Below, piece by piece: positions 1-64,000 of a stretch of 64,000 bases of DNA (positions are counted from its first letter, which is position 1; each line of letters begins with the position of its first letter). The translations under genes were made by a program, and so were the position numbers. The notes below the pieces were generated by a model. That model was not told where the DNA came from. It saw only the letters and a program-made list of their open reading frames with translations, and ran no database searches. Origin of the DNA: Saprospira grandis (GTDB taxonomy: Bacteria > Bacteroidota > Bacteroidia > Chitinophagales > Saprospiraceae); the NCBI RefSeq assembly GCF_027594745.1, contig NZ_CP110854.1, forward strand, positions 1,308,241-1,372,240. The letters are read 5' to 3'.

Positions 1-50
1 TTGGGGCGTTACTCCTTACAGTTGTCGAACTGCGGCCTAAAGGCCTTGTT
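1..50 (+). repeat. Partial copy of the intergenic repeat family (module C: ...ACTCCTTACAGTTGTCGAACTGCGGCCTAAAGGCCTTGTTGT...), truncated by the window edge
   Basis: Same ~45-nt motif (TTACTCCCTTCGGTCGTCGAACTGCGGACTAAAGTCCTTGTTGTCG) recurs at 21095-21125 (rc), 36020-36060 and 41375-41420. Confidence 0.6.
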
Positions 51-61
51 GTGGCCAAAAA

Positions 62-100
62 AGAGAGCCCCCAGCTAGCTGCGCTGGCTGGGGGCTCTTG
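62..100 (-). terminator. Rho-independent terminator downstream of the PfkB kinase gene
   Basis: Perfect hairpin AGAGCCCCCAGCyAGC...GCTGGCTGGGGGCTCT followed on the minus strand by a T-run. Confidence 0.5.
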
Positions 101-116
101 TGTAATAGAGCAAAGT

Positions 117-1031
117 CTAGAGCTTCACTTCCATCAAGTTTTGGAAAGCTTTCTTACGAGCGTCCAAAGCAGCCTCATCAATTTCTTTGAGGCGGTTAGG
201 ACCAAAAGCTTCTACACAGAAAGAAGCGACTACAGAACCGTAGACCAAAGCACGCTTCATGCTCTCCAAAGAGTGGTCATCTTCCTGAGCCAAATAGCCC
301 ATAAAGCCACCGGCAAAGCTATCGCCAGCTCCAGTAGGATCAAATACTTCTTCCAAAGGCAAAGCAGGAACAAAGAAAGTAGATTCGCCATGGAACAACA
401 AAGCGCCATGCTCTCCCTTCTTAATCACCAAATATTTGGGGCCCATCTCACGGATTACACGAGCAGCCTTTACTAGAGAGTACTCCCCAGACAACTGACG
501 AGCTTCCTCATCATTGATAATTAAAATATCTACCTGTTTCAATACCGCCTTGAGCTCCTCCATGGCAATATCCATCCAGAAGTTCATGGTATCCATAGCA
601 ACCAATTTAGGGCGCTTTTCTAGTTGCTCCAACACCTGCATTTGTACAGCAGGCGCAAAGTTACCCAACAAAAGGTATTCAGGGTTTTTATAGCCTTCGG
701 GCAATTTGGGGCTATAGTTCTCCAATACATTGAGCTCTGTGGCCAAAGTATCCCGAGCATTCATATTCATGTGATAGCGACCGGCCCAAAAGAAAGACTT
801 TTCGCCTTCGCGCTTCTCCAATCCATCCAAATTAACGCCTCTGGCTTCCAAAGCAGCCAACTCCTCTGCAGGAAAATCCTCGCCAATTACAGATAGCAAT
901 TGTAAGTCTTTGTGAAAATGAGAAGCCGCCCAAGCAATATAAGTACCAGCACCACCAATGATGCGGTCTGCCTTGCCAAAAGGAGTTTCAATGGTATCAA
1001 AGGCAACAGTGCCCAATGTCAATAAGCTCAT
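117..1031 (-). CDS. PfkB-family carbohydrate kinase (ribokinase/fructokinase-like)
   Basis: GAGD...AGG motifs of the PfkB C-terminal region (DPTGAGDSFAGGF) and a ribokinase-like N-terminus. The six-frame ORF extends to 1058 with a GTG start; ATG at 1031 is preferred. Confidence 0.8.
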   Translation of the reverse strand: MSLLTLGTVAFDTIETPFGKADRIIGGAGTYIAWAASHFHKDLQLLSVIGEDFPAEELAALEARGVNLDGLEKREGEKSFFWAGRYHMNMNARDTLATELNVLENYSPKLPEGYKNPEYLLLGNFAPAVQMQVLEQLEKRPKLVAMDTMNFWMDIAMEELKAVLKQVDILIINDEEARQLSGEYSLVKAARVIREMGPKYLVIKKGEHGALLFHGESTFFVPALPLEEVFDPTGAGDSFAGGFMGYLAQEDDHSLESMKRALVYGSVVASFCVEAFGPNRLKEIDEAALDARKKAFQNLMEVKL

Positions 1032-1156
1032 AGTAAAATTGATTTTTTTTCTGGGCACAAAAAAACAGAAAAAGGCCGAAAAAACGGCAGCCTAGCCCCC
1101 TTTTTTGTCTAGTCCAAAAGAAACTCCATTTTTTTTATGTCTTTTTTTGCAAAAAG

Positions 1157-1188
1157 TTTGGCAAAACCAAAAAGGGCTCCTATATTTG
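1157..1188 (+). promoter_or_regulatory. Bacteroidetes sigma-A-type promoter (TTTG -33, TAtaTTTG -7) driving the tRNA-Asn pair
   Basis: TTTG at 1157-1160 and TATATTTG at 1181-1188, spaced about 20 bp apart, about 40 nt upstream of the first tRNA. Confidence 0.45.
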
Positions 1189-1228
1189 CATACGCAAAGA
1201 GGGAACAGCCCTCTAAAAGCAAACATAC

Positions 1229-1302
1229 GCTTCCATAGCTCAGTTGGTTAGAGCATCTGACTGTTAATCAGAGGGTCCCTGGTTCGAGCCCAGGTGGGAG
1301 CG
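1229..1302 (+). tRNA. tRNA-Asn (anticodon GTT)
   Basis: Cloverleaf folded by hand: 7-bp acceptor stem (GCTTCCA/TGGGAGC with one G-T wobble), D-arm GCTC/GAGC, anticodon stem TCTGA/TCAGA with loop CTGTTAA, T-arm GGTTCGAGCCC. CCA is not encoded. Confidence 0.85.
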
Positions 1303-1327
1303 CTACTCATACACAACAATATATTTT

Positions 1328-1401
1328 GCTTCCATAGCTCAGTTGGTTAGAGCATCTGACTGTTAATCAGAGGGTCCCTGGTTCGAGCCCAGGTGGGAGC
1401 G
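1328..1401 (+). tRNA. tRNA-Asn (anticodon GTT), identical second copy
   Basis: 74/74 nt identical to the first copy, 25 bp downstream. Confidence 0.85.
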
Positions 1402-1402
1402 C

Positions 1403-1439
1403 AAAAGCCCGACTTCATTTGAAGTTGGGCTTTTTTTTA
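1403..1439. terminator. Bidirectional rho-independent terminator after the tRNA pair
   Basis: AAGCCCGACTTC-ATTT-GAAGTTGGGCTT hairpin followed by an 8-T run; it overlaps the stop of the convergent minus-strand gene. Confidence 0.65.
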
Positions 1440-2285
1440 TTCCTGCAAGCGCTTTAAGGCCTTAGGCCGCAAGCGCCACAGCTTGGCCCCCGATAAAATT
1501 GAGCGCTCTGTGGTTAAATACAGCTGCGCATCTGGTCCAAAACAAAGGGCCTCTTGCTGCCGCAAAGGCAGGCGTATGCGCTGCTCTAATGGACCAAAAC
1601 GGCCCCGCTCAAAAGAAAAGCGGTACAAATGCCGCATACTTAATAAATAAAGGCTTTGCTCTTCTTCTCGATAAGCCGCGGCCGTAACCGATTGCCATAA
1701 CCCTCCCTTTTTTAGCTGTACGCTATCGCAGAGGCGGGCCGCCTGCGGCCCCGCCTCTTTGCCCAAGGCATAGAGATAATGCCAGCCATCATGCGGACGA
1801 TGGCGGTTTTTGGTCACTATATATAAGCTGTCGCCTTGGGTAAAAAGGGCCTCGGCATCAAAGTGGCGCTGCCAAGAGGCGGCGGGAAAAGCAATTTGCT
1901 CTGGATAATAAAAGCTAATTTTTTGAGGCTGAATTTCCTTTTGGTCCAAAGCCGATTTTGGAAAAAAATAGATGCAAAGATCTTGGCGCTGATTTAAATT
2001 ATTGCCCATATCGGCCAAGTAAATAAATGCGCTATCAGTAGCAAGCGCCTCCCAATCTACATTGGGCGCTAAAATGTTGATGCTGCGCTGCAAACGCCCT
2101 TTTTGGTCCAATTCATAGAGCAAAGGAGAGTTTCCACCATCATTATGGGTATAAAAACTGCCGCTGCTGTCGATCCAAAGACCAGAACTTTCCGAAATAG
2201 GCAGGCGGCCCAAAGAACTCAAGCGACAAGCCGACAAACTTAGGCAAAGGAGCAAAATGCCAATACAACTTTTCATGGGCAGCAA
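1437..2285 (-). CDS. Hypothetical lipoprotein, secreted
   Basis: N-terminal signal peptide with a lipobox (LLLCLSLSAC); no recognizable catalytic motif. Confidence 0.5.
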   Translation of the reverse strand: MLPMKSCIGILLLCLSLSACRLSSLGRLPISESSGLWIDSSGSFYTHNDGGNSPLLYELDQKGRLQRSINILAPNVDWEALATDSAFIYLADMGNNLNQRQDLCIYFFPKSALDQKEIQPQKISFYYPEQIAFPAASWQRHFDAEALFTQGDSLYIVTKNRHRPHDGWHYLYALGKEAGPQAARLCDSVQLKKGGLWQSVTAAAYREEEQSLYLLSMRHLYRFSFERGRFGPLEQRIRLPLRQQEALCFGPDAQLYLTTERSILSGAKLWRLRPKALKRLQE

Positions 2286-2291
2286 TTTTTG

Positions 2292-2437
2292 CGGTGGACA
2301 GGCGGCGAAGCCGCCGCAGGCCTAGCGATGTGGAGCAGTGGCCGTTAGGCCAGACCGAAGCCCAAAGGGCTGAAGGGCCGAGCGAATAGCGAGCTGCGAA
2401 ACGTAGCGCCTGCCGAAGGCAGGAGGCCCCAAATAAA
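2292..2437 (-). repeat. Intergenic GC-rich hairpin repeat, module A, reverse orientation
   Basis: rc of ...CTCGCAGcTcGCTaTTCGCTCGGCCCT...GGTCTGGCC...CATCGCTAGGCC plus the terminal GGCGGCGAAGCCGCC hairpin; ends GGAGGCCCCAAA. Confidence 0.8.
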
Positions 2438-2471
2438 AAGGCATCTAGCCTAAGCCAAATGCCTTTATCTC

Positions 2472-3614
2472 TTAATCGACAATCATGGTATTTTTATCCA
2501 ATTCTTGTTGACGAATATTTTCGGGTAGTTCTAAATACTCATATTCCTGATTGCGCAATTGCGGACGGAAACCCGCCTCGCGGATGGCGTCTTGAATCCC
2601 TTGGGCCGTAAATCGGAAGGCAGCACCAGCGGCAGAAACCACATTTTCCTCAATCATGATGCTTCCAAAATCGTTGGCGCCAGCATGTAGGCAAGCCTGG
2701 GCCACCTGTTTGCCAACGGTCAGCCAAGAGGCCTGAATATTGGTCACATTGGGCAACATAATGCGGCTGAGGGCAATCATGCGGATATATTCATCGCCGC
2801 TCACATCTCGGCGTTTGATTTTCAGGCGAGACAAAATGGTGTCTTCATCCATAAATGGCCAAGGAATAAAGGCCAAAAAGCCCTTGGCATCCTTGGGTTT
2901 TTCGTTTTGCACCTCTCTCAACCAAACCAAATGCTCCATGCGCTCATAATTGGTCTCGATATGGCCAAACATCATGGTGGCGCTGGTCGTCAGATGCAAT
3001 TGATGCGCAGCCCGCATCACATCTAGCCACTCTTGGCCCCCGCATTTTCCGCGAGAAATACGGCGACGCACCCGATCATTGAGAATTTCGGCACCCGCCC
3101 CAGGCAAAGAATCTAGGCCCGCTTCTTTGAGGCGGCTGAGCACTTCTGTATGCGAAAGCTGATCAATTTTGGCGATATGCGCGATTTCGGGTGGGCCCAA
3201 AGCATGCAATTTGAGCGTAGGATAAAGCGATTTGAGCTCCTTAAACAGATCACAATAGTAATCAATGCCCAAATCGGGATGGTGTCCACCTTGCAAAAGC
3301 AACTGCTGGCCGCCATACTCCATCAACTCATCAATTTTGCGCTTGTAAGTGTCTATAGAGGTAATATATGACTCCTCATGGCCAGGGCGGCGGAAGAAAT
3401 TACAGAACTTACAGTTGGCAATACAGACGTTGGTGGTGTTCGAGTTGCGGTCGATAATCCAAGTCACCACATCATTAGGGACATGATGTTGGCGCAGGCG
3501 GTTGCCCACATACATCAACTCGGCGGTGCTTGCCTCTTCGAGCAAAAAAACACCCTCCTCAATACTGAGCTCTTCTAGTTGCAGGGCTCTATGCAATAAA
3601 TCGCTTACATTCAT
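2472..3614 (-). CDS. Radical-SAM enzyme of the futalosine menaquinone pathway (MqnC/MqnE family)
   Basis: CIANCKFCNF (CxxxCxxC) radical-SAM cluster motif, GGQQLLLQGGHHPDLGIDYY, and a size of about 380 aa typical of MqnC/MqnE/CofH-like enzymes. Confidence 0.65.
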   Translation of the reverse strand: MNVSDLLHRALQLEELSIEEGVFLLEEASTAELMYVGNRLRQHHVPNDVVTWIIDRNSNTTNVCIANCKFCNFFRRPGHEESYITSIDTYKRKIDELMEYGGQQLLLQGGHHPDLGIDYYCDLFKELKSLYPTLKLHALGPPEIAHIAKIDQLSHTEVLSRLKEAGLDSLPGAGAEILNDRVRRRISRGKCGGQEWLDVMRAAHQLHLTTSATMMFGHIETNYERMEHLVWLREVQNEKPKDAKGFLAFIPWPFMDEDTILSRLKIKRRDVSGDEYIRMIALSRIMLPNVTNIQASWLTVGKQVAQACLHAGANDFGSIMIEENVVSAAGAAFRFTAQGIQDAIREAGFRPQLRNQEYEYLELPENIRQQELDKNTMIVD

Positions 3615-3711
3615 AGCTTTTTGTTTCCAGATTCTCTCTTTTAACAGCCCTTTGGGCCTATGGTTGCCTCAAAGATACAACTTTTTTCATCTGTTATTGA
3701 AAGTAGGCATA

Positions 3712-3875
3712 TTTTGGGGCTTCCCCTGCGGCCTTCGGCCTTGGGTCGGGCTGTGTCGCAGCTCGCAGGCTTGCTCGGCCCTGCAGCGCTTCGCGCTTTG
3801 GTCTGGCCCTTCGGGCCACTGCTATCCATCCCTAAGCCAAGTCGCTTCGCTCCTTTCTACTGCTTGGAGCAGAGG
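3712..3875 (+). repeat. Intergenic repeat module A, forward
   Basis: TTTTGGGGCTTCCCCTGCGGCCTTCGGCC...CTCGCAGGCTTGCTCGGCCCTGC...GGTCTGGCCCTTCGGGCCACTGCTATCCATCCCTAAGCC. Confidence 0.85.
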
Positions 3876-7486: not shown

Positions 7487-7591
7487 CAGTCTCTTTTTTT
7501 GTAAAAGCCTAGCGAATTTAAGAAAAAAAGCGCTTTGTGCCAATTTATACAAATTTGATTACAGATGTAGGGATTCTTTTCACCTTTTTAT

Positions 7592-7750
7592 TTTTTTGGG
7601 GCTGCCCCGCCTTGCAGGCGGGTCGGGCTGTCTCAGGGCTCGCAGGTCTGCTCGGCCCTTCGCAAAAAAGCTGCGCTTTTTTGCTCGGTCTGGCCCTGCG
7701 GGCCACCCTTGCCCATCCCTCAGCCATTAAAAGCTGGCTGCGCCAGCCCC
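7592..7750 (+). repeat. Intergenic repeat module A, forward
   Basis: TTTTTTTGGGGCTGCCCCGCCTTGCAGGCGGGTCGGGCTGTCTCAGGGCTCGCAGGTCTGCTCGGCCCT...GCCCATCCCTCAGCC plus a GCTGGCTGCGCCAGCC hairpin. Confidence 0.85.
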
Positions 7751-7755
7751 GCCCC

Positions 7756-9397: not shown

Positions 9398-9537
9398 ATT
9401 GGCCCAGCGCTGCGAAGGGGGGGCCGCAAGGCCAGACCCAGGCGCTGAAAGCGCCGCAGGGCCGAGCAGACCTGCGAGCCCCGCAGCATAGCGGCGGCCG
9501 ACCTAGGCGAAGCCTAGCCGGCCGCGGGCCCCAAAAT
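9398..9537 (-). repeat. Intergenic repeat module A, reverse, truncated
   Basis: ...GCCGCAGGGCCGAGCAGACCTGCGAGCCCCGCAG...GGGCCCCAAAATC. Confidence 0.8.
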
Positions 9538-9546
9538 CATCTAATT

Positions 9547-11778: not shown

Positions 11779-11890
11779 AGGCCCTAAAATCAACAGACCG
11801 CTAAATTTCGCCGCTAAGCGAGCCTAGCTAATCTCTAGTAGGGTCAGCCCAGAAAAAAAAGATAGGACCTTATAGATACGCCCGGAGGAG

Positions 11891-12200
11891 TTTGTAAACT
11901 GCAAATTAGCTCTGGCGTCACGCCAGAGGCGTTTTGCAACTGCAGATTAGCTCCGGCGCCACGCCAGAGGCATTTTGCAAATGCAGATTAGCTCTGGCGC
12001 CACGCCAGAGGCGTTTTGCAAATGCAGATTAGCTCTGGCGCCACGCCAGAGGCGTTTTGCAAATGCAGATTAGCTCCGGCGTCACGCCAGAGACGTTTTG
12101 CAAATGCAGATTAGCGCTGAACAGCTGTATAAAGCTGTTTTGCAAATGCAAATAAAGGCTAGCGCCAAGCCAGAGGCATTTGTAAACTGAAGATAGGTCC
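11891..12200. repeat. Tandem array of a 41-bp unit (about 7 copies, degenerate at the ends), each carrying a perfect 8-bp-stem hairpin CTCTGGCGyCACGCCAGAG
   Basis: Units GTTTTGCAAATGCAGATTAGCTCTGGCGCCACGCCAGAGGC repeat head-to-tail with 0-3 mismatches and no intervening unique spacers. Confidence 0.9.
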
Positions 12201-13353: not shown

Positions 13354-13399
13354 TACAAATGGTTTACTGAAAAAATAGGTATGTATTTATCTAGGAGGG

Positions 13400-13572
13400 T
13401 TTTGGGGCTGCCCCTGCGGCCTTCGGCCTTGGGTCGGGCTGTGTCGCAGCTCGCAGGTCTGCTCGGCCCTGCGGCGGCTTTGCCGCCTGGGTCTGGCCTG
13501 CGGCCACTGCTGTCCATCCCTCAGCCGCGTCGCTACGCTCCTTTGCGGCCCTTCGGGCCTGTAGGAGGCAGA
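13400..13572 (+). repeat. Intergenic repeat module A, forward
   Basis: TTTTGGGGCTGCCCCTGCGGCCTTCGGCC...CTCGCAGGTCTGCTCGGCCCTGCGGCGGCTTTGCCGCC...CATCCCTCAGCCGCGTCGCTACGCTCCTTTGCGGCCCTTCGGGCC. Confidence 0.85.
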
Positions 13573-14267: not shown

Positions 14268-14440
14268 TTGCAGGGCCGAAGGCCCGCAAAGGAGCGTAGC
14301 GACGCGGCTGAGGGATGGACAGCAGTGGCCGAAGGCCAGACCCAGGCAGCTTTGCTGCCGCAGGGCCGAGCGAACAGCGAGCTGCGACACAGCCCGACCC
14401 AAGGCCGCAGGCCGCAGGGGCAGCCCCAACAAAAAATAAA
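14268..14440 (-). repeat. Intergenic repeat module A, reverse
   Basis: GGGCCGAAGGCCCGCAAAGGAGCGTAGCGACGCGGCTGAGGGATGG...GGCAGCCCCAACAAAAAA. Confidence 0.85.
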
Positions 14441-16377: not shown

Positions 16378-16492
16378 TTGGTTTGTTCAGATTATTATTA
16401 TCTGAATAAGTTTAGGGAAGTAGAATTTAGCCAATAGTCGCCTAGGGACAAGCCCCTAGGCAGCTACAACTTTTAAACAGGTCTTTTTGTGT

Positions 16493-19743: not shown

Positions 19744-19906
19744 TTTTTTTTGGGGCTGCCCCTGCGGCCTGCGGCCTTGGGTCGGGCCATTGCGCAGCTC
19801 GCAGGTCTGCTCGGCCCTGCACAGGCTGCGCCTGTTTGGTCTGCCGCCTGCGGCGGCCCTGCTACAGCCCCTCAGCCGATAGGCTGGGGCTGCGCCCCAG
19901 CCCCAT
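19744..19906 (+). repeat. Intergenic repeat module A, forward
   Basis: TTTTTTTTGGGGCTGCCCCTGCGGCCTGCGGCCTTGGGTCGGGCCATTGCGCAGCTCGCAGGTCTGCTCGGCCCTGC...CCCTCAGCC plus a GGCTGGGGCTGCGCCCCAGCC hairpin. Confidence 0.85.
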
Positions 19907-21055: not shown

Positions 21056-21290
21056 GGCGCAAAGCGCCTGGCCACAACAAGCCCTTTAGGGCGTAGTTCG
21101 ACGACCAAAGGGAGTAACCGATGCGCAGCAGAGGCGCGAAGCGCCTGGCCTAGCGATGCGGCGGGGTGGCCGAAGGCCAGACCAAGCAGGCTTTGCCTGC
21201 GAAGGGCCGAGCAGACCTGCGAGCCCCAAAGTGTAGCGCCGACGAGCGAAGCGAGGCGGAGGCCCCAAAACAGACAGACAAAAAAACCTA
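21056..21290 (-). repeat. Intergenic repeat, long variant (module C + module A), reverse
   Basis: Contains rc of CGGTTACTCCCTTTGGTCGTCGAACTACGCCCTAAAGGGCTTGTTGT (module C) followed by GGCCTAGCGATGCGGCGGGGTGGCC...GGCCGAGCAGACCTGCGAGCCCC...GGAGGCCCCAAAA. Confidence 0.85.
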
Positions 21291-24747: not shown

Positions 24748-24978
24748 TTTTTTTGGGGCCTGCCGCCTTTGGCGGCCGGGCCCTTGCAGGGCTCGCAGGT
24801 CTGCTCGGCCCTGCGTCGCCTTCGGCTCCTTGGTCTGGCCTGCGGCCACCCTTTCAGGCCCCTAGGCCTGCGGCCCTTCGGGCCTGTTTACTGTAGGTTG
24901 AAACCTACAGCAACAACGGTATTGCTTCGCAATGAAGCATAAATGAGGGTTAAAACCCTCATGAAGTTAACTTCTCGG
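24748..24978 (+). repeat. Composite repeat: module A (forward) fused to module B (three consecutive palindromic hairpins)
   Basis: Module A TTTTTTTGGGGCCTGCCGCCTTTGGCGGCC...CTCGCAGGTCTGCTCGGCCCTGC...GGCCCTTCGGGCC followed by CTGTAGGTTGAAACCTACAG / TATTGCTTCGCAATGA / ATGAGGGTTAAAACCCTCAT. Confidence 0.85.
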
Positions 24979-27013: not shown

Positions 27014-27160
27014 CAGAGCGGGCCGAAGGCCCGCCGGCCTAGCGATGTGCAGCAGTGCGGCGCAGCCGCAGACCCAGGCCGTCAGGCCGCAGGGCCGAGC
27101 AGACCTGCGAGCTGCGAAACGTAGCGCCGCAAGGCAAAGCCGCAGCGGAGGCCCCAAAAC
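27014..27160 (-). repeat. Intergenic repeat module A, reverse
   Basis: GGGCCGAAGGCCCGCCGGCCTAGCGATGTGCAGCAGTG...GGCCGAGCAGACCTGCGAGCTGCGAAACGTAGCGCC...GGAGGCCCCAAAA. Confidence 0.85.
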
Positions 27161-27232
27161 TCCTTAGACTTTCCTATATAAACGCTTCTGCCATAAAAAA
27201 AAGGGCCAAAAGGCCCTAAAGTTCTCTTAAAA

Positions 27233-28842: not shown

Positions 28843-28929
28843 GATTTGGGAAATCTGTTTATTATCTCTGTAGGTTAGAACCTCATAAAGCTAATCCTTT
28901 GAATACACAGTATACTGAATAGTTGGGGA

Positions 28930-29072
28930 TTTTGGGGCCTCCTGCCTGCGGCAGGCGCTACGTTCCGCAGCTCGCTATTCGCTCGGCCCTGCGGCAGCAA
29001 AGCTGCCTGGGTCTGGCCCTTCGGGCCACTGCTGCACATCGCTAGGCCAGGCTGGCCTTCGGCCAGCCTTCT
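28930..29072 (+). repeat. Intergenic repeat module A, forward
   Basis: TTTTGGGGCCTCCTGCCTGCGGCAGGCGCTACGTTCCGCAGCTCGCTATTCGCTCGGCCCTGCGGCAGCAAAGCTGCC...GGCCCTTCGGGCCACTGCTGCACATCGCTAGGCCAGGCTGGCCTTCGGCCAGCC. Confidence 0.85.
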
Positions 29073-32555: not shown

Positions 32556-32726
32556 AGAGGACAGGCGGCGAAGCCGCCGCAAAGGAGCGCAGCGACGCGG
32601 CTGAGGGATGGATAGCAGTGGCCCGCAGGGCCAGACCGAAGCGCTTTAGCGCTGAAGGGCCGAGCAGACCTGCGAGCTGCGGCACAGCCCGACCCGCCCG
32701 CAGGGCGGGGCAGCCCCAAAAAAAGA
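32556..32726 (-). repeat. Intergenic repeat module A, reverse, lying between the TPR gene stop and the OMP gene start
   Basis: GGCGGCGAAGCCGCCGCAAAGGAGCGCAGCGACGCGGCTGAGGGATGGATAGCAGTGGCC...GGCCGAGCAGACCTGCGAGCTGCG...GGGCAGCCCCAAAAAAAG. Confidence 0.85.
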
Positions 32727-35881: not shown

Positions 35882-35981
35882 GAAGTTCTATTTAATTTTA
35901 AAGGAGTCTTTCCTAGAGAATCATTCTAATAAGTTCTTAGCTCAAGATACAGTTTTTTAACTGTTTTATGATTTTGGGGCC

Positions 35982-36228
35982 TCCGCTGCGGCTTCGCCTT
36001 GCGGCGGTTACTCCCTTCGGTCGTCGAACTGCGGACTAAAGTCCTTGTTGTCGCAGCTCGCTGCTGTTTTTGTGGGGCCTCCGCCTCCCTTTGGTCGTCG
36101 GCGCTACGTTTCGCAGCTCGCTATTCGCTCGGCCCTGCGCCAGCAAGCCGGCTAGGTCTGGCCTGCGGCCACTGCTGCACATCGCTAGGCCAAGGCGGCT
36201 TTGCCGCCTTCTGCTCCAAGAAAGTAAT
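35982..36228 (+). repeat. Intergenic repeat, long/dimeric variant (module C + module A), forward
   Basis: TTTTGGGGCCTCCGCTGCGGCTTCGCC...GGTTACTCCCTTCGGTCGTCGAACTGCGGACTAAAGTCCTTGTTGTCGCAGCTCGC, then a second TTTTTGTGGGGCCTCCGCCTCCC...CTCGCTATTCGCTCGGCCCTGC...CATCGCTAGGCCAAGGCGGCTTTGCCGCC. Confidence 0.85.
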
Positions 36229-37149: not shown

Positions 37150-37274
37150 CGCCAATGGCCTAGCGATGCGAAAGGGTGGCCGTCAGGCCAGACCGAGGCG
37201 CTTTGCGCCGAAGGGCCGAGCAGACCTGCGAGCCCTGTAGCGTAGCGCCTGCCGAAGGCAGGAGGCCCCAAAAA
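37150..37274 (-). repeat. Intergenic repeat module A, reverse
   Basis: GGCCTAGCGATGCGAAAGGGTGGCCGTCAGGCCAGACC...GGCCGAGCAGACCTGCGAGCCCTGTAGCGTAGCGCCTGCCGAAGGCAGGAGGCCCCAAAAA. Confidence 0.85.
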
Positions 37275-37300
37275 TAACAGCAGTAAGTTAAAAAACAAAA

Positions 37301-41282: not shown

Positions 41283-41335
41283 GATTCTTTTCTTTTAGTC
41301 GCCGCAAAAATAGCCTTTTTCTTTGGAATAATAAT

Positions 41336-41597
41336 TTTTTGGGGCCTCCGCTGCGGCCTGCGGCCTTGCGGCGGTTACTCCCTTTGGTCGTCGAACTGCG
41401 CCCTAAAGGGCTTGTTGTCGTTGCGCAGCTCGCTGCTATTTTGGGGCCTCCGCCTCCCTTCGGTCGTCGGCGCTACGTTTCGCAGCTCGCTGTTCGCTCG
41501 GCCCTGCGGCCTGACGGCCTGGGTCTGCGGCTTCGCCGCACTGCTGCACATCGCTAGGCCAAATGGAAGTCCTGCGCTTCGGCCATCCTTTGGTAAA
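41336..41597 (+). repeat. Intergenic repeat, long/dimeric variant (module C + module A), forward
   Basis: TTTTTTGGGGCCTCCGCTGCGGCCTGCGGCC...GGTTACTCCCTTTGGTCGTCGAACTGCGCCCTAAAGGGCTTGTTGTCG..., then a second TTTTGGGGCCTCCGCCTCCCTTCGG...CTCGCTGTTCGCTCGGCCCTGC...CATCGCTAGGCC. Confidence 0.85.
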
Positions 41598-43208: not shown

Positions 43209-43360
43209 GACCTTCGGTCATTCCTACCCCCAAAAGCTGCTGGGCCTGAAAACAGCAGCCCGCCATAAAATTAGAAGCAGGGGCTTTTAAGCTCCTGCGG
43301 CAAGAAAAATGAGGACCAACAAGATTGGCTGCGGCCTTTAGGCTGCAGTAAGCTCATTTA

Positions 43361-43578
43361 TATATCATTGCGAAGCAATACCATTGTTGCTGTAGGTTTC
43401 AACCTAAGTTCAATCCATGAGGGTTTTAACCCTCATCCATATATCATTGCGAAGCAATACCATCTGGCTGTAGGTTTCAACCTAAGTTCAATTCATGAGG
43501 GTTTTAACCCTCATCCATATATCATTGCGAAGCAATACCATCTGGCTGTAGGTTTCAACCTACAGTTAAAAGGGCCGA
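43361..43578 (-). repeat. Tandem array (78 bp x about 2.7) of module B (three palindromic hairpins)
   Basis: Units ATATCATTGCGAAGCAATACCATCTGGCTGTAGGTTTCAACCTAAGTTCAATyCATGAGGGTTTTAACCCTCATCCAT repeated at 43363, 43441 and 43519. Confidence 0.9.
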
Positions 43579-43712
43579 AGGCCCGCGGCTGAGGGATGGA
43601 CAGCAGTGGCCGAAGGCCAGACCCAGCCGCTGAAGGCGGCGCAGGGCCGAGCGAACAGCGAGCTGCGAAACAGCCCGACCCAGCCAAAGGCTGGGGCAGC
43701 CCCAAAAAAAGA
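43579..43712 (-). repeat. Intergenic repeat module A, reverse, directly abutting the module-B array
   Basis: GGGCCGAAGGCCCGCGGCTGAGGGATGGACAGCAGTGGCC...GGCCGAGCGAACAGCGAGCTGCGAAACAGCCCGACCC...GGGGCAGCCCCAAAAAAAG. Confidence 0.85.
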
Positions 43713-43768
43713 AAAGGTCCAGCACCGAAGTACTGGACCTTTAAAGGGTTTAGCAAAAGCTAATTAAA

Positions 43769-48133: not shown

Positions 48134-48292
48134 TTTTTTTGGGGCCTGCCGCCTGCGGCGGCCGGGCCCTTGCAGGGCTCGCAGGTCTGCTCGGCCCTTC
48201 AGCCCTTCGGGCTTCGGTCTGGCCTGCGGCCACCCTTTCAGGCCCCTAGGCCAGTCGCTGCGCTCCTTTGCGGCGGCTGCGCCGCCTGTCTA
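48134..48292 (+). repeat. Intergenic repeat module A, forward (left arm of an inverted pair)
   Basis: TTTTTTTGGGGCCTGCCGCCTGCGGCGGCC...CTCGCAGGTCTGCTCGGCCCTTC...GGTCTGGCCTGCGGCCACCCTTTCAGGCCCCTAGGCC... Confidence 0.85.
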
Positions 48293-48342: not shown

Positions 48343-48490
48343 CTAGGGCCGCAAGGCCCTAATTGGCTTAGGGATGGATAGCAGTGGCCCGAAGGGCCAG
48401 AGCCAGGCGCTGAAAGCGCCGCAGGGCCGAGCAGACCTGCGAGCTGCGCCACAGCCCGACCCGACCAAAGGGAGGGGAAGCCCCAAACCC
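48343..48490 (-). repeat. Intergenic repeat module A, reverse (right arm of an inverted pair)
   Basis: GGGCCGCAAGGCCC...GGCTTAGGGATGGATAGCAGTGGCCCGAAGGGCCAGAGCC...GGCCGAGCAGACCTGCGAGCTGCG...GGGGAAGCCCCAAA. Confidence 0.85.
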
Positions 48491-52276: not shown

Positions 52277-52428
52277 TTTTTTTGGGGCCTCCCCTCGCCC
52301 TCAAGGGCTCAGGGCGCTACGTTCCGGGGCTCGCTACTCGCTCGGCCCTTCGCCAGCAAGCTGGCTCGGTCTGGCCCTGCGGGCCACCCCTACACATCGC
52401 TAGGCCATGATGGCCTTCGGCCATCCTT
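52277..52428 (+). repeat. Intergenic repeat module A, forward
   Basis: TTTTTTGGGGCCTCCCCTCGCCCTCAAGGGCTCAGGGCGCTACGTTCCGGGGCTCGCTACTCGCTCGGCCCTTC...CATCGCTAGGCCATGATGGCCTTCGGCCATCC. Confidence 0.85.
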
Positions 52429-54006: not shown

Positions 54007-54039
54007 GCCCAACTCCAATAAGGAGTTGGGCCTTTTTTA
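54007..54039. terminator. Bidirectional rho-independent terminator between gldC and the convergent membrane-protein gene
   Basis: GGCCCAACTCC-AATAA-GGAGTTGGGCC followed by TTTTTTAT. Confidence 0.7.
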
Positions 54040-55173
54040 TTCCCGCCAATCTTCCACCCGCCAATGTTTTGCAGGCTGCAAAAGCGGTAGTTCCCTATAC
54101 ATTAAGGTATTGGCCCGCCAAGAAACCTCTTGCCCTCCCCATTCTCCAAATAGGAAGAGTTGGTCACTAGTTTGGCGATAATATAAACGAGCCCAAAGGC
54201 TATCGCTCTGCAAATCGTAGAGGGTAAGGCCCTCTTTGGGCAAATAGCGCAAGCGATAGCTCTTTTGCCTCCTCCCCTGCTGCATGATCCAGTAGCCCCG
54301 ACGATGGATATAAAATTGTTGGCCATCTTCTAGGGCATAGGCCCCATGCAAAGGCGGCCTAGGCTCCAAATCGTCGTTCCAATGCTGCCGATGCCGATAG
54401 GGCCAAGCAATATTCAGAAGGATCAATAGGAGGAGAGCTGTTTTGAGCACTCTTTTTTGCCCTTTGCGAAAACTAGGCCCTAAGGACTGTTTTACCGCCA
54501 AAGCCTGCCCGCTAGACCAAACCCAAAGCCCTTTTAATCTGGGCCAAAGAAGATATAAGGCCATCCATAAAAGCCCAGCCGAGTATATCTTGACATTAAT
54601 GTCAAAACTGATGTTGATGAGCAAAACCTGCCCCATAACCCCAGCCGCTAATAAAGCGCCCAATGCTCGACTAGGACGATAGAATAATGCTAATGCCGCT
54701 AAGAGTTCTACTATACCGGTCCAAAAACTATAGGTCCAAGAACTGCCCATGACCGACCAAAAGGCTAGATCTTTCTCAATATAGCCTAAAGGCTGATATA
54801 AGGTATTGGGCTCGGGCAAAAAGAACTGCTGTTTGAGCAGTTTGTCTAGACCATAACGCCCCAGTTGCATACCTAAGTAATAGGCGATACCCAATTGTAA
54901 ATAAGACTGAAACTGCTGACTCCAGTTTTTTTTGTCCCAAACTAATAGTAAAGCCGCCTCCGCAGCCAAAACAATGAGGTGCAAATAAAAGCCGGTACTA
55001 TCCGATGCTAAAACATAGTAGCCCCCTTCTATCCCTAAAAGCGCCCCGCAAGCCTTATAAAAGGGCTCAAATGCTTCGGCCCAAAATCTAGAGTAGGCAG
55101 GCCATAGCGGCTGTTCAATTGGAGCCGTTAGGGCAAAAAGAATTAAGTATATAGTCGTCCAACGATAAAGCAT
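54037..55173 (-). CDS. Polytopic membrane protein, hypothetical
   Basis: 378-aa ORF with at least 8 predicted TM helices in the N-terminal 250 aa and a Trp/Arg-rich soluble C-terminal domain. Confidence 0.45.
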   Translation of the reverse strand: MLYRWTTIYLILFALTAPIEQPLWPAYSRFWAEAFEPFYKACGALLGIEGGYYVLASDSTGFYLHLIVLAAEAALLLVWDKKNWSQQFQSYLQLGIAYYLGMQLGRYGLDKLLKQQFFLPEPNTLYQPLGYIEKDLAFWSVMGSSWTYSFWTGIVELLAALALFYRPSRALGALLAAGVMGQVLLINISFDINVKIYSAGLLWMALYLLWPRLKGLWVWSSGQALAVKQSLGPSFRKGQKRVLKTALLLLILLNIAWPYRHRQHWNDDLEPRPPLHGAYALEDGQQFYIHRRGYWIMQQGRRQKSYRLRYLPKEGLTLYDLQSDSLWARLYYRQTSDQLFLFGEWGGQEVSWRANTLMYRELPLLQPAKHWRVEDWRE

Positions 55174-55447
55174 CTGTATTTTTTTTAGCTGTTCTATCTA
55201 ATCCACGGAGCTAATCCGAGATGTCCGTAGACCTCCGTGGCGCATTCTAAGCTCCTCTTTTAATTTTCCTATACCCCTCCTAATTAAAAAATAAAAGGCG
55301 CTTAGGCCCTAAAATAAGCGATCCTTTATTTAGAAGGATAAAAAAAGGCCCCAAACTGTAGTTTGGGGCCTTTCTGAGCCATCAAATTATTGAGCATAAA
55401 AGCTTGAGCAAGGAATTAGGCCAGCCAATAATAGCGAAAGCGGCAAG

Positions 55448-55590
55448 AAGGCCCGAAGGGCCGCAGGCCTAGCGATGTGCAGCAGTGGCCGTCAGGCCAG
55501 ACCCAGCCGCTGAAAGCGGCGCAGGGCCGAGCGAATAGCGAGCTGCGGAACGTAGCGCCGACGAGCGAAGCGAGGCGGAGGCCCAAAAAA
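55448..55590 (-). repeat. Intergenic repeat module A, reverse
   Basis: GGCCCGAAGGGCCGCAGGCCTAGCGATGTGCAGCAGTGGCCGTCAGGCCAGACCC...GGCCGAGCGAATAGCGAGCTGCGGAACGTAGCGCC...GGAGGCCCAAAAAAA. Confidence 0.85.
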
Positions 55591-55627
55591 ATCGCCCTTA
55601 TCCTCGATCATTTTCTTCAGAAGTGCT

Positions 55628-58565: not shown

Positions 58566-58628
58566 TTTTTTTTGGGGCCCGCGGCCAGCTTTGCTGGCCG
58601 CCGCTATGCTGCGGGGCTCACTGTGCCG
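58566..58628 (+). repeat. 5'-terminal 58-60 bp fragment of repeat module A; direct duplicate of the 5' end of the copy at 59723
   Basis: TTTTTTTTGGGGCCCGCGGCCAGCTTTGCTGGCCGCCGCTATGCTGCGGGGCTCAC matches 59723-59783 exactly, then diverges into AT-rich DNA. Confidence 0.85.
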
Positions 58629-58635
58629 CTAATAT

Positions 58636-59559: not shown

Positions 59560-59722
59560 GCAAATATTTTTAGTTAGATAATCCCATAAAGCTAAAAAAA
59601 TAGTTTTTCATTTTTAATAAAAAAACTTTAAATCACAATTGCTCATGGCAAACAAAATTCTTGTTCTTAAATGAGTCGCGGACAGTAGTGGGAGCAGAAT
59701 TATTAAGCACCTATATTATTGT

Positions 59723-59915
59723 TTTTTGGGGCCCGCGGCCAGCTTTGCTGGCCGCCGCTATGCTGCGGGGCTCACAGGTCTGTTCGGCCCTTCGCTTTTT
59801 CGCTTTGCTCAAAAGCTCGGTCTGGCCTTCGGCCACCCCTCCGCAGCGCTGGGCCGCTCATCGGAGCGGTTTTGTTTGGGCGTTCTGCTTTGGCGGCTTG
59901 GCCTTTCCTTTTAAG
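59723..59915 (+). repeat. Intergenic repeat module A, forward (variant with GGCCAGCTTTGCTGGCC first hairpin)
   Basis: TTTTTTGGGGCCCGCGGCCAGCTTTGCTGGCCGCCGCTATGCTGCGGGGCTCACAGGTCTGTTCGGCCCTTCG...GGTCTGGCCTTCGGCCACCCCTCCGCAGCGCTGGGCCGCTCATCGGAGCGG. Confidence 0.85.
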
Positions 59916-60039
59916 CGGTATTCGTCGCTGCGCTCCTCATTCGCCAATATGTCCCCGCCCACCCAGCCCTCTGCGGGATTCCCTAAGGAATCCCTCAGGG
60001 AGGCGGGCAACAAGCTTGCTGCAGACTTGGTCCAAATTC

Positions 60040-60118
60040 AACGCATGAGGGTTGAAACCCTCATGCCTATAAGATGGCGAAGCAATACCGCTCTTGCTGT
60101 AGGTGTTCAGCTACAGCT
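60040..60118 (-). repeat. Module B (three hairpins, partly degenerate), reverse
   Basis: ATGAGGGTTGAAACCCTCAT / GGCGAAGCAATACC / CTGTAGGTGTTCAGCTACAG. Confidence 0.7.
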
Positions 60119-60275
60119 AAAAAGGGCCGAAGGCCCGCAGGCTGAGGGATGGATAGCAGTGGCCCAAAGGGCCAGACCCAGCCGCCTTTGGCGGCGCAGG
60201 GCCGAGCAGACCTGCGAGCTGCGACACAGCCCGACCCGAAGGCCCAAAGGGCCGAAGGGGCAGCCCCAAAAAAAG
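60119..60275 (-). repeat. Intergenic repeat module A, reverse; with 59723-59915 it forms an inverted pair bracketing module B
   Basis: GGGCCGAAGGCCCGCAGGCTGAGGGATGGATAGCAGTGGCCC...GGCCGAGCAGACCTGCGAGCTGCGACACAGCCCGACCC...GGGGCAGCCCCAAAAAAAG. Confidence 0.85.
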
Positions 60276-60278
60276 AAA

Positions 60279-61565: not shown

Positions 61566-62010
61566 GGCTATTTTTTTTGGTCCACATTCCCGCTAATTCG
61601 GCCTTAGCGACCAAATCGCCAGCCTCATTATAGGCCGAGGCCGTCACTCGAAGCTGTTGGAGACGAAATAATTTCTTTTTGGCCTCTACCCGCAGCAGCT
61701 CTCCAGGGCGATGGAGCTGGTAGAAATTCACCTTAGAGCTACTAAAAGCAATTTTGGGCACCTCCTGCAGCTCCTCTTTCAATAAATAAATGCCTAGGCA
61801 AACCAGGCCAATTTGAGCCATGCACTCCAAGAGCAGCACCCCCGGCGTAATGGGGTCCTCGGGAAAATGGTCCGCATAAAAAGGGGCATCCTCTGCAAAG
61901 CGGTATTGGCCAATAACGCCCTCCTCGTTCAGCTCCAACAACTCATCTACAAAGCAGAAACTGGGACCATAGGGAAGCAAGGCCAAAATATCTTGATAAT
62001 TTTCTTTCAT
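61549..62010 (-). CDS. FabZ/FabA-like 3-hydroxyacyl-ACP dehydratase (hotdog fold)
   Basis: HFP.DPI.PGVL..E..AQ motif (HFPEDPITPGVLLLECMAQ); 153 aa; overlaps the KAS gene by 17 nt. Confidence 0.8.
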   Translation of the reverse strand: MKENYQDILALLPYGPSFCFVDELLELNEEGVIGQYRFAEDAPFYADHFPEDPITPGVLLLECMAQIGLVCLGIYLLKEELQEVPKIAFSSSKVNFYQLHRPGELLRVEAKKKLFRLQQLRVTASAYNEAGDLVAKAELAGMWTKKNSHDAGK

Positions 62011-62016
62011 CTTTTC

Positions 62017-62802
62017 TTAAATCAATCGTTCTCCCCCATCTACGGGGATAATAGCGCCATTAATCCAGGCCGATTCTGCTCGGCAAAGCAGCTCGATAAC
62101 TTTGGCCACATCTTCGGCCTTAGTCATTCGGCCCAAAGGGTTTCGACTTTTGGCAAATTGGGCCAAATCATCGCTGCCTGGAATCAGTTGAAAAGAGCGA
62201 GTATTCATCATGCCCGCCTGTACAATATTGGCTCGGATGCCCAGAGGCGCATACTCTAGGGCCATAGAACGGATGATGGCCTCTAGGGCCGTTTTGGCGG
62301 CAGATACAGCCGCATAATGGGACCAAGCCCGCTGGTTGCCGCCACTACTGAGGCCCAAAACTCGGGCATCTTCGGCAAAGCGGCCTAGAGCAATTAATCC
62401 CTGCGCCCAATCGACAATACTATAAGCCATATTTTGGGCCGTGAGCTGAAAATCAGTACTCGTCAAATTATTCTGCCCTAAAAAAGCCTTGAGATTTCCC
62501 TTGGCAATACTATGCAGCAACAGCCGAAAACGCGCCCCAGCAGGCAGGCGGTTCGAGAGCTCGGCCAAAGAGCGGGCAATTTGCTCCTTCTGCGTAGCAT
62601 CCACATTATAATGCAAAATGCTTACGCCCGTTTCTAGGGCCAAGGCCTGAAAACGAGCCTGGGCCTCTCGGGCATCGGCTCGCCTTTCTCGATAATAAAT
62701 GCAAAGCGACATGCCTTTTTTGGCCAGTACTTGGGCCGCAGCCCAACCTAATCCAGAAGAGCCCCCTAAAATGAGCCCCCAAAGTTCTTTTTCCTTATAC
62801 AT
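62017..62802 (-). CDS. SDR-family reductase with FabI-like Y-x6-K catalytic motif (putative enoyl-ACP reductase)
   Basis: N-terminal Rossmann GGSSGLG; catalytic YAAVSAAK (Y-x6-K, spacing characteristic of FabI rather than the classical YxxxK) followed by ANIVQAGMMNT, cf. E. coli FabI NAISAGPIRT. Confidence 0.65.
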   Translation of the reverse strand: MYKEKELWGLILGGSSGLGWAAAQVLAKKGMSLCIYYRERRADAREAQARFQALALETGVSILHYNVDATQKEQIARSLAELSNRLPAGARFRLLLHSIAKGNLKAFLGQNNLTSTDFQLTAQNMAYSIVDWAQGLIALGRFAEDARVLGLSSGGNQRAWSHYAAVSAAKTALEAIIRSMALEYAPLGIRANIVQAGMMNTRSFQLIPGSDDLAQFAKSRNPLGRMTKAEDVAKVIELLCRAESAWINGAIIPVDGGERLI

Positions 62803-62829
62803 GGGTTTACTAATTTTCTGGGGCGAAGC

Positions 62830-63888
62830 CTACTCCCAATTTAATAATAGCCGCTGAGCCGAAAAGCCTGGGCCAAAGCTGAGCATCAGGCCCTTTTCGC
62901 CTGCGGCAATCTCCTTTTCTAGATAGCGCTCGAGCACATAGAGCACCGTGGCCGAAGACATATTGCCATAAAGGCGCAAGACCTCCTTGGTCTCCTCGAT
63001 ATTTTTGCCCAAATCGGCAAAAAGGCCCTCTACCATCTGTACAATCTTTTTGCCGCCGGGATGAAAAATCAAATGCTCAATCTCTTCGATCGTCAAGCCA
63101 TTCTTTTCAATAAAAGGAAAAAGGACCGACTTAAAATGCCGCTCAATTTTATTGGGCACTTCCTTGTCCAAAATCATTTGAAGGCCCGTATTGCGCAGCT
63201 TGAAGCCCATCATATCAATTTCGTCATAAAAATGATACATTTCTCCTGCAATGATGGCGGGTTTTAGCTCCTCGGAGGGGCCCAGAATGGTACAAACCGC
63301 TCCATCGCCAAAAATGGCCGCACTGACCATATTGACCATGCTCATATCATCCTGCTGAAAAGTAGCCGTAGGCGACTCAAAAGCGACAATAGCCGCCCGC
63401 TTGCCCGGATTGGCCAAAAGCAGATTGTAGGCATAAATCAAAGCGGAGGTTCCCCCCGCACAGCCCATTTCTGTTACGGGCAAACGCATAATATCTTGAC
63501 GCATTCTCAGCGCATTAATTAAGTAGGCATCTATGGAGGGAATCATAATGCCCGTACAGCTCACACTAATGATTATATCGATATCGGTAGGCTGCAAATT
63601 GGCTTTTTTGAGGGCCCCTTCTACGGCTTGCTGCGTCAGTAGGGTATATTCCTCGGCATAACGGGCATTCTTTTCCTCAAAGGAGGTTTGCTGAAACACC
63701 TCTTCGATGTCCATAATGGAGTAGCGACGGTCTACCTGCGCATAGCGAAAAATACGCTCCACCTTACGGCGAAAGCGTTCGTCTTGGCCCTTGGCCTGCA
63801 GCCAAAGATCGATATAGGGTAAAATATCGGCTGTAGATCTAGAATAAGGCGGCAGAGCCTTATGTGTGGAAAGTATTTTTATAGACAA
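62830..63888 (-). CDS. Type III polyketide synthase (chalcone/stilbene synthase superfamily)
   Basis: Active-site Cys context MGCAGGTSAL; HPGGKKI; GNMSSATV (cf. CHS GNMSSACV); C-terminal SFGPGFS (GFGPG loop). These motifs match type III PKS, not FabH. Start codon appears to be TTG. Confidence 0.8.
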   Translation of the reverse strand: MSIKILSTHKALPPYSRSTADILPYIDLWLQAKGQDERFRRKVERIFRYAQVDRRYSIMDIEEVFQQTSFEEKNARYAEEYTLLTQQAVEGALKKANLQPTDIDIIISVSCTGIMIPSIDAYLINALRMRQDIMRLPVTEMGCAGGTSALIYAYNLLLANPGKRAAIVAFESPTATFQQDDMSMVNMVSAAIFGDGAVCTILGPSEELKPAIIAGEMYHFYDEIDMMGFKLRNTGLQMILDKEVPNKIERHFKSVLFPFIEKNGLTIEEIEHLIFHPGGKKIVQMVEGLFADLGKNIEETKEVLRLYGNMSSATVLYVLERYLEKEIAAGEKGLMLSFGPGFSAQRLLLNWE

Positions 63889-64000
63889 GAGAGTATATTT
63901 TAAGTTTTTTGGGGTAAGCGATTTTTAAAATACGAGAAAAAATAGGCTATGGAGTTATTTAGCTGCTTTTTTATCTTTCTCCAAATGGAATCACTTCCTT

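Follow-up and report, generated by a model that had tools for sequence, protein, structure and literature searches.

A dense family of mosaic multi-hairpin intergenic repeats in Saprospira, probably REP/BIME-like

Repeat copies in a 64-kb stretch of Saprospira grandis

The 64-kb stretch of Saprospira grandis contig NZ_CP110854.1 analyzed here (the window; contig positions 1,308,241 to 1,372,240) contains 46 intergenic regions, 20 of which (43%) are occupied by copies of a GC-rich palindromic repeat, module A. The module A family is unusually large and dense; its probable kind, that of the repetitive extragenic palindromic (REP) sequences and bacterial interspersed mosaic elements (BIMEs), is already known, and the family itself is new and restricted to Saprospira. 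Copies were tallied by nhmmer with a hidden Markov model (HMM) and by cmsearch with a covariance model built on an alignment of 22 copies, as had been proposed in an original prediction made from the window alone. The covariance model recovers 22 full copies at 94 to 124 bits, 11 forward and 11 reverse, and there are three fragments (35969+, 41334+, and 58567+) that retain the T-run end only; this agrees with the roughly 24 copies predicted, and all 22 predicted coordinates were recovered. A 23-nt core pattern has 14 matches in the window at up to three mismatches versus none across 100 shuffles. The unit is 120 to 200 nt long, and the cores constitute 4.4% of the window. As predicted, every copy lies outside the coding frames, between long open reading frames (ORFs). 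The predicted presence in nearly every intergenic region was an overestimate, since the occupied fraction rises only to 20 of 31 (65%) among regions of at least 100 nt.

Read from its T-run, module A begins with 3 to 8 T residues, followed by GGGGC, which opens a closing helix that pairs 5′ GGCYK with MRGCC of the 3′ end. After the closing helix come a variable hairpin (hp1) and two further long-range helices, then the conserved stretch GCTCGC-(AGGTCT or TRYTC)-GCTCGGCCCT, a second variable hairpin (hp2), GGTCTG, a third variable hairpin (hp3), and the 3′ strand of the long-range helices. The 3′ end reads ...AGCC/GGCC and is followed by a variable tail hairpin, often with CTSTNNNCGCAAAA after it, and the tail frequently terminates in ...GCAAAA. 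The fold comprises eight helices, with the three local hairpins lying within the long-range helices. The single-stranded motifs GCTCGC, GCTCGGCCCT, and GGTCTGG, which surround hp2 and hp3, are invariant, the unpaired GCTCGGCCCT and GGTCTGG being so in 50 of 50 copies.

The fixed ends originally described gave way to at least four end subtypes (A to D), in which the 5′ and 3′ halves co-vary, and to the variable T-run. The only terminal inversion is TTTTGG...CCAAAA, of about 5 to 6 nt, and it occurs only in copies with a full tail. GTAG is confined to subtype B, on the A-run strand (..AACGTAGCGCC..), and subtypes A and D have ACAG and ATAG. An optional block, module C (GTTACTCCCTTYGGTCGTCGAAC...CTTGTTGT), occupies the same junction on either strand or stands in a duplicated 3′ end; it had been predicted for the longer variants and was found three times in the window. 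Module A is mosaic in make-up, in that it combines its subtypes A to D with tail hairpins that vary, a module C that may be present at either of two positions, and module B alongside. Module B is a second repeat family, with 78-nt units that carry CTGTAGGTTGAAACCTACAG and ATGAGGGTT.AAACCCTCAT hairpins (window positions 43353-43567, ~24885-24965, and 60017-60113); every observed copy of it adjoins the 3′ tail of a module A copy, and relatives are found on the plasmid of S. grandis Lewin.

The full copies are given here by core coordinates, strand, and covariance-model score. Subtype A (GGGGCTKCCCC...CATCCCTMAGCC) is represented by cores at 3709..3838 (+; 118.5 bits), 7591..7727 (+; 112 bits; orthologous copies in loci L087-L090), 13399..13526 (+; 110.5 bits; orthologous copies in 5 genomes), 14306..14434 (-; 116.9 bits), 32599..32724 (-; 117.7 bits), whose T-run begins 7 nt past a stop codon, 43587..43710 (-; 112.1 bits), 48365..48487 (-; 109.1 bits), and 60140..60274 (-; 121.7 bits), whose T-run begins 4 nt past a stop, and a subtype A variant lies at 19745..19878 (+; 94.3 bits). 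Subtype B (GGGGCCTCC...CATCGCTAGGCC) comprises the cores at 2319..2437 (-; 115.7 bits), 21147..21271 (-; 121.1 bits; module C in the 3′ tail at 21070-21140), 27036..27161 (-; 109.9 bits), 28929..29048 (+; 119.7 bits), 36068..36191 (+; 117.5 bits), 37157..37276 (-; 121.9 bits), 41437..41560 (+; 103.2 bits), 52277..52406 (+; 114.6 bits), and 55466..55591 (-; 123.6 bits). Subtype C (GGGGCCTGCC...GGCCCCTAGGCC) has cores at 24748..24868 (+; 98.6 bits) and 48134..48252 (+; 98 bits), and subtype D (GGGGCCCGCGGCC...CAGCGCTGGGCC) has cores at 9401..9539 (-; 100.4 bits), whose orthologue in strain DSM 2844 has module C inside, and 59722..59855 (+; 111 bits). Two gene-less tail-to-tail pairs are formed by 48134+ (left) with 48365- (right) and by 59722+ (left) with 60140- (right). 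Among the fragments, the one at 35969..36067 (+; 21.2 bits) consists of a T-run end with module C (36010-36029) and CGCAGCTCGC and is fused upstream of the full copy 36068+, the one at 41334..41436 (+; 21.5 bits) consists of a T-run end with module C (41377-41396) fused upstream of 41437+, and the third, a truncated subtype D fragment at 58567..58621 (+; 32.1 bits), stops after GGGGCTCAC.

Copies had also been predicted to replace terminators or to sit beside them. The second part stands for some copies, which follow a terminator or lie between a stop codon and a terminator. In a terminator scan, the T-run of copy 43587- also forms the T-tail of a terminator-like hairpin (43713-43742), and copy 55466- has a stop codon on one side and a terminator-like site (55342-55375) on the other. 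The first part does not stand: module A lacks the shape of a terminator, and a terminator role is ruled out by that shape, as the T-run comes before the hairpins when read one way and an A-run comes after them when read the other way.

Fold support and alternating orientation

The fold was evaluated on 50 paralogues whose alignment was fitted to the model's own structure, so the counts lean towards it; a control with slid partners separates clearly all the same. Paired cells amount to 97.9%, versus 79% in column shuffles and 31 to 58% with slid partners, and both-sided changes occur at 21 of 31 pairs (272 cells), with one-sided changes almost absent. The multi-branch fold of module A is strongly supported by this covariation, for which the original prediction had proposed to look. 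Single-sequence folding energy only weakly beats shuffles (z-scores of -0.35 to -3.3), and the case for structure therefore rests on covariation.

The pairing is almost entirely of the Watson-Crick type. Once an invariant G.T pair (GGCC with GGTC) is set aside, about 5 G.T and 3 A.C pairs remain among about 1,500 cells, together about 0.5% of the variable stem cells. In this respect, module A is unlike many REP families, which show G.T pairing, taken by Di Nocera et al. to indicate an RNA function (PMC3733652). The loops are triloops, C(TTC)G in 31 cases, C(TGC)G in 26, and C(TTT)G in 22, with the reverse forms C(GAA)G, C(GCA)G, and C(AAA)G seen 1, 0, and 13 times; the TTT/AAA loops thus flip strand freely (22:13), and the TTC and TGC loops hardly ever do so (31:1 and 26:0). 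UUCG tetraloops, a candidate raised by the predicted UUCG/GAAG-type loops, are excluded, because stem pairing imposes the triloop register, and the stable reading is that of the opposite strand. On the strand that ends in the A-run, the triloops are C(GAA)G and C(GCA)G, and d(C-GNA-G) triloops (GNA type) are exceptionally stable in DNA. Stem mismatches are T.C/C.T in 20 cases versus G.A/A.G in 4, which corresponds to G.A on the A-run strand, and the DNA folding z-score is better on the A-run strand in 4 of 4 copies.

Relative to the gene beside them, about 22 copies are placed in sense (T-run end facing the stop) and about 20 in antisense (facing the start codon), and along the pur and paa operons, whose genes all run in one direction, sense and antisense copies take turns. 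The near absence of pairs other than Watson-Crick pairs, the strand-asymmetric loops, and an orientation independent of transcription favor a constraint at the DNA level over one at the RNA level, and the pattern suggests that it is on the A-run-ending strand that the fold is constrained. The same observations (hardly any G.U, a sense-to-antisense ratio of about 22:20, and a 'UUCG' that is a triloop stable on the opposite strand) go against the structured RNA that had originally been suggested.

Neighboring module A copies are inverted relative to each other in 55 of 60 pairs (binomial p = 5e-12). Alternating pairs number 20 of 21 in the window and 19 of 20 on the Lewin plasmid, and those on the Lewin chromosome number 8 of 8 in locus L084 (weaker matches included), 3 of 3 in L338, and 5 of 7 in L339; locus L085 adds one same-orientation pair to the total. 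Full copies of the same orientation are never less than 2,437 bp apart (n = 54; median, 4.8 kb), while 33 of 55 inverted neighbors are closer than this, with a minimum of 113 bp, and same-orientation neighbors are farther apart than inverted ones (Mann-Whitney U test, p = 0.005). Tail-to-tail intervals are short, and about one-third of them are gene-less; head-to-head intervals always contain genes. Inverted neighbors are no more alike or complementary than random pairs (0.62 versus 0.62), which argues against recent symmetric doublets and partner-specific duplexes. Between 3709+ and 7591+, the only same-orientation pair in the window, a search with filters off found no remnant copy.

Distribution, age, and probable exchange between copies

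In 174.6 kb of non-orthologous Saprospira DNA, 64 copies were found, all intergenic, or 1 per 2.73 kb, close to the predicted density of about 1 per 2.7 kb; extrapolation suggests about 1,600 copies per 4.35-Mb genome. Module A is present on the chromosomes and 55-kb plasmids of S. grandis Lewin and Saprospira sp. CCB-QB6, with equal density on chromosome and plasmid. Its coverage is interrupted on the Lewin chromosome at L338 1-6289, which holds a type III-A Csm operon, and at L339 1252-7416 (6 kb; five genes, the first SbcC-like), both without module A and with the usual density around them. Among 72,556 plasmids, matches were restricted to two Saprospira plasmids, at 16 and 15 places. The plasmids NC_016936.1 and NZ_CP116809.1 (53 to 55 kb) carry purine, guanine, and pyrimidine biosynthesis genes and a phenylacetate (paa) operon, and AT-rich iteron-like repeats (AATAAAGATTCCGTTATTTCTTTAATTC) adjoin module A tails in several of their spacers. 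Among the matches listed, module A is absent from the rpsA neighborhoods of 80 other Saprospiraceae/Chitinophagales (1.3 Mb), the best match listed in that rpsA-based scan having 74% identity. An exact 22-mer has no match in viral contigs, and with a loose gapped DNA pattern run on metagenome and viral collections, 3 of 240 loci were true, all of them from one Saprospira-bearing sample.

The supposition that the family was uncatalogued was borne out by both databases and literature. Against Rfam 15, the window gives only two tRNAs at the gathering score, and a search with two module A copies at E≤10 gave nothing meaningful; a full-text literature search found no description of module A. The two tRNAs are tandem tRNA-Asn(GTT) genes at 1229-1303 and 1328-1402, with identical Rfam scores. 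The warning that spurious ORFs through the repeat could mislead gene callers was also well founded. In a protein search, the translation of such an ORF matches SGRA_0019, 0223, 0391, and 1287, which are annotated as 'hypothetical proteins' in S. grandis Lewin, and a few metagenome contigs. The metagenome contigs that hold the window gene 2472-3614 (L001-L003) measure just 1.3 to 1.5 kb, and two of them, L001 and L002, break off within module A. Module A fragments short-read assemblies of Saprospira, and this effect, the density of 1 copy per 2.73 kb, and a synteny breakpoint described below agree with its portrayal as a genome-shaping element.

Orthologous loci were compared among S. grandis Lewin, DSM 2844 (JH719942), Saprospira sp. 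CCB-QB6 (CP116808), a 39-kb ENA contig that is 96 to 98% identical to the window, and metagenome contigs. Each of the 7 sites that the window has between 6 and 26 kb carries a copy in a further five genomes or contigs, which are of 81 to 97% identity, and 21 plasmid sites correspond between Lewin and CCB-QB6. Module A copies are old and have been inherited at fixed positions across Saprospira species. Presence/absence polymorphism at orthologous loci and target-site duplication had both been proposed as checks; the former was seen at none of the 7 chromosomal and about 20 plasmid sites, and the latter gave no signal, with a mean longest flank match of 6.46 versus 6.52 in permuted controls.

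Orthologous copies differ by blocks, with 72 paired double changes versus 10 one-sided changes and 9 breaks. The hp2 of copy 14306- is GGCAGCAAAGCTGCC in some orthologues and GGCGGCTTTGCCGCC in others, and AGGTCTGC and T(R)YTCGC interchange between orthologous copies. The Lewin allele of site 21147 is a mosaic, its hp1 being that of one group and its center that of another, and Lewin, CCB-QB6, and L091 carry the central part of another subtype and lack module C there. In the paaZ spacer, CCB-QB6 has TTTTTGGGGC-module C-GGCC-tail and Lewin has the full core, and the flanks are identical. Such block differences bear the probable signature of exchange between module A copies, and block replacement also fits template switching within hairpins. 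Owing to this exchange, much of the 'covariation' is the swap of whole complementary units.

Synteny with Lewin and DSM 2844 stops at window position 24881, 13 nt past the core of copy 24748+. Beyond this point, Lewin, DSM 2844, and CCB-QB6 carry a large Por_Secre_tail gene, and the window has a TPR/PD40/OmpA gene (25042-26982). Gene content also differs elsewhere. A Joint Genome Institute contig (L095 10438-13423), otherwise syntenic with window 43.7 to 54 kb, has defense-type HEPN_RiboL-PSP and GmrSD genes in place of the 378-aa gene at 54037-55173, and a closely related ENA contig (L085 6825-7767; 96 to 98% identical) has an extra 940 bp with a DUF3800 gene relative to window position ~1436. 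A separate insertion of about 100 bp follows the rplT terminator (16385-16488), with the direct repeat GGTCTTTTT on both sides; it is absent from five related genomes or contigs, and the Lewin version at the same site is 236 bp longer, so that, unlike module A, this element shows both duplication and presence/absence polymorphism. A tandem array at 11891-12119 (extending over ~11841-12194) consists of 5.6 units of 41 bp, each with a CTCTGGCG..CGCCAGAG hairpin, and is not a CRISPR, since it has no spacers. It sits in the convergent spacer after an S8 peptidase gene, where the DSM 2844 orthologue has a 76-nt spacer only.

Relation to known repeats and competing explanations

Module A shares several properties with the REP/BIME sequences of Enterobacteria and Pseudomonas, a group that includes the REPINs and is associated with HUH/Y1 enzymes of the REP-associated tyrosine transposase (RAYT/TnpA-REP) type. 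It is extragenic, GC-rich, palindromic, and very high in copy number, its extrapolated count of about 1,600 exceeding the 100 copies per genome expected of REPs. It has several co-existing subtypes and a mosaic of modules, lacks target-site duplications, persists vertically at fixed sites, and has stems that change sequence yet stay complementary. REPs within BIMEs likewise alternate in orientation (PMC2817692). The differences are also considerable. A REP is a single hairpin of 20 to 40 nt, and module A is multi-branched, 120 to 200 nt long (3 to 5 times longer), and without a conserved GTAG or CGTC head. Its alternation spans kilobases with genes between the copies, unlike that of BIMEs, which is confined to a cluster, and its inverted spacing is not a fixed short spacer but ranges from 113 bp to several kilobases. 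No RAYT was found in about 300 kb of Saprospira DNA, and membership of module A in the REP/RAYT system is not established. Genes of a RAYT subclass specific to Bacteroidetes (2.6) have 'atypical secondary structures' on either side, and additional copies of these structures occur at other places in the same genomes (Quentin et al. 2018, PMC6006769); the structures come from the same phylum and are like module A by description, Saprospira not being named there.

Other families are less similar. The pneumococcal BOX (boxA-B-C), Neisseria Correia, and enterobacterial ERIC elements are also modular or foldable intergenic repeats of 100 to 200 nt, and the likeness extends to transcription with neighboring genes and an ability to affect mRNA processing. 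Module A shows neither the long terminal inverted repeats of Correia and ERIC nor the TA duplications of Correia, and its copy density is several-fold higher than that of these three families. We know of no report of genome-wide orientation alternation for BOX, Correia, or ERIC. Integron attC sites likewise fold as single-strand DNA, vary in their stems, keep conserved ends, and occur once after every gene, but module A ends lack R''/R' core sites (GTTRRRY), attC sites are uniform in orientation where module A alternates, and the genes flanked by module A are housekeeping genes (rpsA, rplT, pur, and paa), unlike attC cassettes.

On balance, we favor the view that module A is a Saprospira-specific, REP/BIME-like, mosaic multi-hairpin intergenic DNA repeat and not an RNA gene. 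Its spread and continuing policing would be due to an activity on single-stranded hairpin DNA, for which the closest model is a RAYT-type HUH/Y1 transposase; elements of the HUH/Y1 kind leave no target-site duplication, in agreement with the lack of one here. When two sites on one strand become single-stranded at the same time at the replication fork, they could be excised, by a hairpin-DNA (HUH/Y1) enzyme, or slipped out, by slippage between close direct repeats. Same-orientation copies within about 2.4 to 3 kb would thereby be lost, leaving alternation. Excision of the insertion sequence IS608 drops steeply with the distance between its ends, both of which must be single-stranded together. 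Module A copies would be kept alike by exchange between copies, and if they affect the ends or the stability of mRNAs at all, they would do so incidentally.

Instability of same-strand sites at short range appears to be the best account of the pattern, and it fits the exclusion zone. A general filter against deletion by homologous recombination was rejected on logical grounds. Even in an alternating series, every copy and the next but one form direct repeats on either side of essential genes; alternation could then cut the recombination cost by half at best, and deletions of needed genes are in any case purged by selection. Hard exclusion alone was also rejected as the cause of alternation. 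At the observed density, simulated hard exclusion at 3.5 to 4 kb yields 86 to 87% alternation, and the 92% observed needs such a distance, which is larger than the smallest same-orientation spacings.

Several observations weigh against the favored explanation. Simulated hard exclusion at 2.4 to 3 kb yields 73 to 78% alternation (p = 0.0003 to 0.005 versus the observed 55 of 60); as a hard threshold, short-range instability under-predicts alternation, and part of the pattern remains unexplained. No ORF with an HUH...Y motif was found in the ~300 kb of Saprospira DNA sampled or in any retrieved locus, and no transposase Pfam domain was found among the 30 window proteins scanned. The 7 chromosomal and about 20 plasmid sites include no empty orthologous site, so no mobility is seen, and module A is far larger and more branched than any REP, in addition to lacking the REP heads. 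The loop bias could partly be inherited from a founder copy, and the unpaired motifs that never vary, like the G.T pair that never varies, are also compatible with an RNA role or with a site recognized by a host protein. Since exchange between copies is able to preserve a sequence that has no function, conservation is a poor guide to function. Copies also lie 0 to 7 nt past stops in the pur and paa operons and between stops and terminators, and with this placement many of them must be transcribed.

This placement is central to a tentative alternative that we consider unlikely, in which module A is a cis-acting RNA element of mRNAs, either a 3′/5′ untranslated-region stabilizer or an operon 'punctuation'. 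Inverted neighbors in one transcript would form a gene-flanking duplex, U-run to A-run included, which a double-strand RNase could cut, as at rRNA-flanking stems. Besides lying just after stops, copies end 8 to 36 nt before starts inside the pur and paa operons, some are placed behind a stop codon and ahead of a terminator, support for the fold is strong, alternation supplies every copy with an inverted partner, and positions are kept across species. What such an element leaves unaccounted for is the near absence of G.U pairs, the equal sense and antisense placement, which means that no single RNA fold is used consistently, and the lack of excess complementarity between neighbors (0.62 versus 0.62). 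Many neighbor pairs are in separate transcription units (convergent or divergent genes), and there is no Rfam relative.

Quite unlikely, in our estimate, is a host architectural DNA site, at which a gyrase/IHF/HU-like or SMC-type protein would act on the invariant motifs or extruded hairpins, with oriented pairs organizing supercoil or loop domains of a few kilobases. Factors of this sort have been reported for Escherichia coli BIMEs, and binding by host proteins (gyrase, IHF, and Pol I) is a hallmark of BIMEs. The invariance of the unpaired GCTCGGCCCT and GGTCTGG in 50 of 50 copies, the similar density on chromosome and plasmid, the alternating orientation, and the quasi-regular spacing are compatible with it, as is the binding of several host proteins to BIMEs (PMC2817692). 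Exchange between copies alone can hold motifs invariant, however, and coverage is uneven, with copy-free multi-gene stretches such as the Csm operon in L338 and the 6 kb in L339; there is also no candidate protein. We give similarly low credence to a functional alternation, in which copies work only with an inverted neighbor and constitute a genome-wide organizing system instead of selfish DNA. If alternation were functional, it could reflect long RNA duplexes that punctuate or process transcripts, or paired DNA sites that form few-kilobase domains of the chromosome and plasmid.

The MITE-like (miniature inverted-repeat transposable element) reading of the original prediction fares worse and is very unlikely. 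A classical MITE derives by deletion from an insertion sequence of the DDE type, is mobilized in trans by a cut-and-paste mechanism, and is recognized by its terminal inverted repeats and its target-site duplications. The size of 120 to 200 nt, the intergenic placement, and the high copy number fit, and the short TTTTGG...CCAAAA ends might represent an inverted repeat of minimal length; the window also holds another small element, which has a duplication (GGTCTTTTT). Module A itself has no terminal inverted repeats of about 10 nt or more, no detectable duplication (6.46 versus 6.52 in controls), and no insertion polymorphism at any orthologous site, where only internal replacements occur. No transposase gene was seen in the window or sampled loci, and random insertion would not yield alternating orientation. 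A retroposed structured RNA resembling a short interspersed nuclear element, with the A-run strand as the RNA sense strand bearing a short A-tail and copying by target-primed reverse transcription at T-rich nicks, can be almost dismissed: the A-run length that varies from 3 to 8 at one end, the retention of the A-run end by all three window fragments, and the stability-favoring loops and mismatches on the A-run strand fit it, against which stand the absence of target-site duplications, of any reverse transcriptase seen, and of G.U pairs, and a fragment elsewhere (L084 4176-4303) without the A-run end. We know of no bacterial precedent for such an element.

Module A accounts for roughly 4 to 6% of Saprospira DNA, seeds spurious 'hypothetical proteins' in public annotation, and lies at one or more breakpoints of synteny between strains. 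With it, the REP/BIME idea reaches the Bacteroidota in the form of a much larger, multi-branched unit that displays two quantifiable regularities, a near-strict alternation at kilobase scale and a 2.4-kb exclusion zone for same-orientation copies. Should this exclusion stem from the excision of same-strand hairpin sites at the fork, or from slippage between them there, the process could be read from the natural spacing of the copies. With covariation by Watson-Crick pairs only and swaps of hairpin blocks, the family may likewise be a good natural case for the upkeep of palindromes by template switching and exchange between copies.

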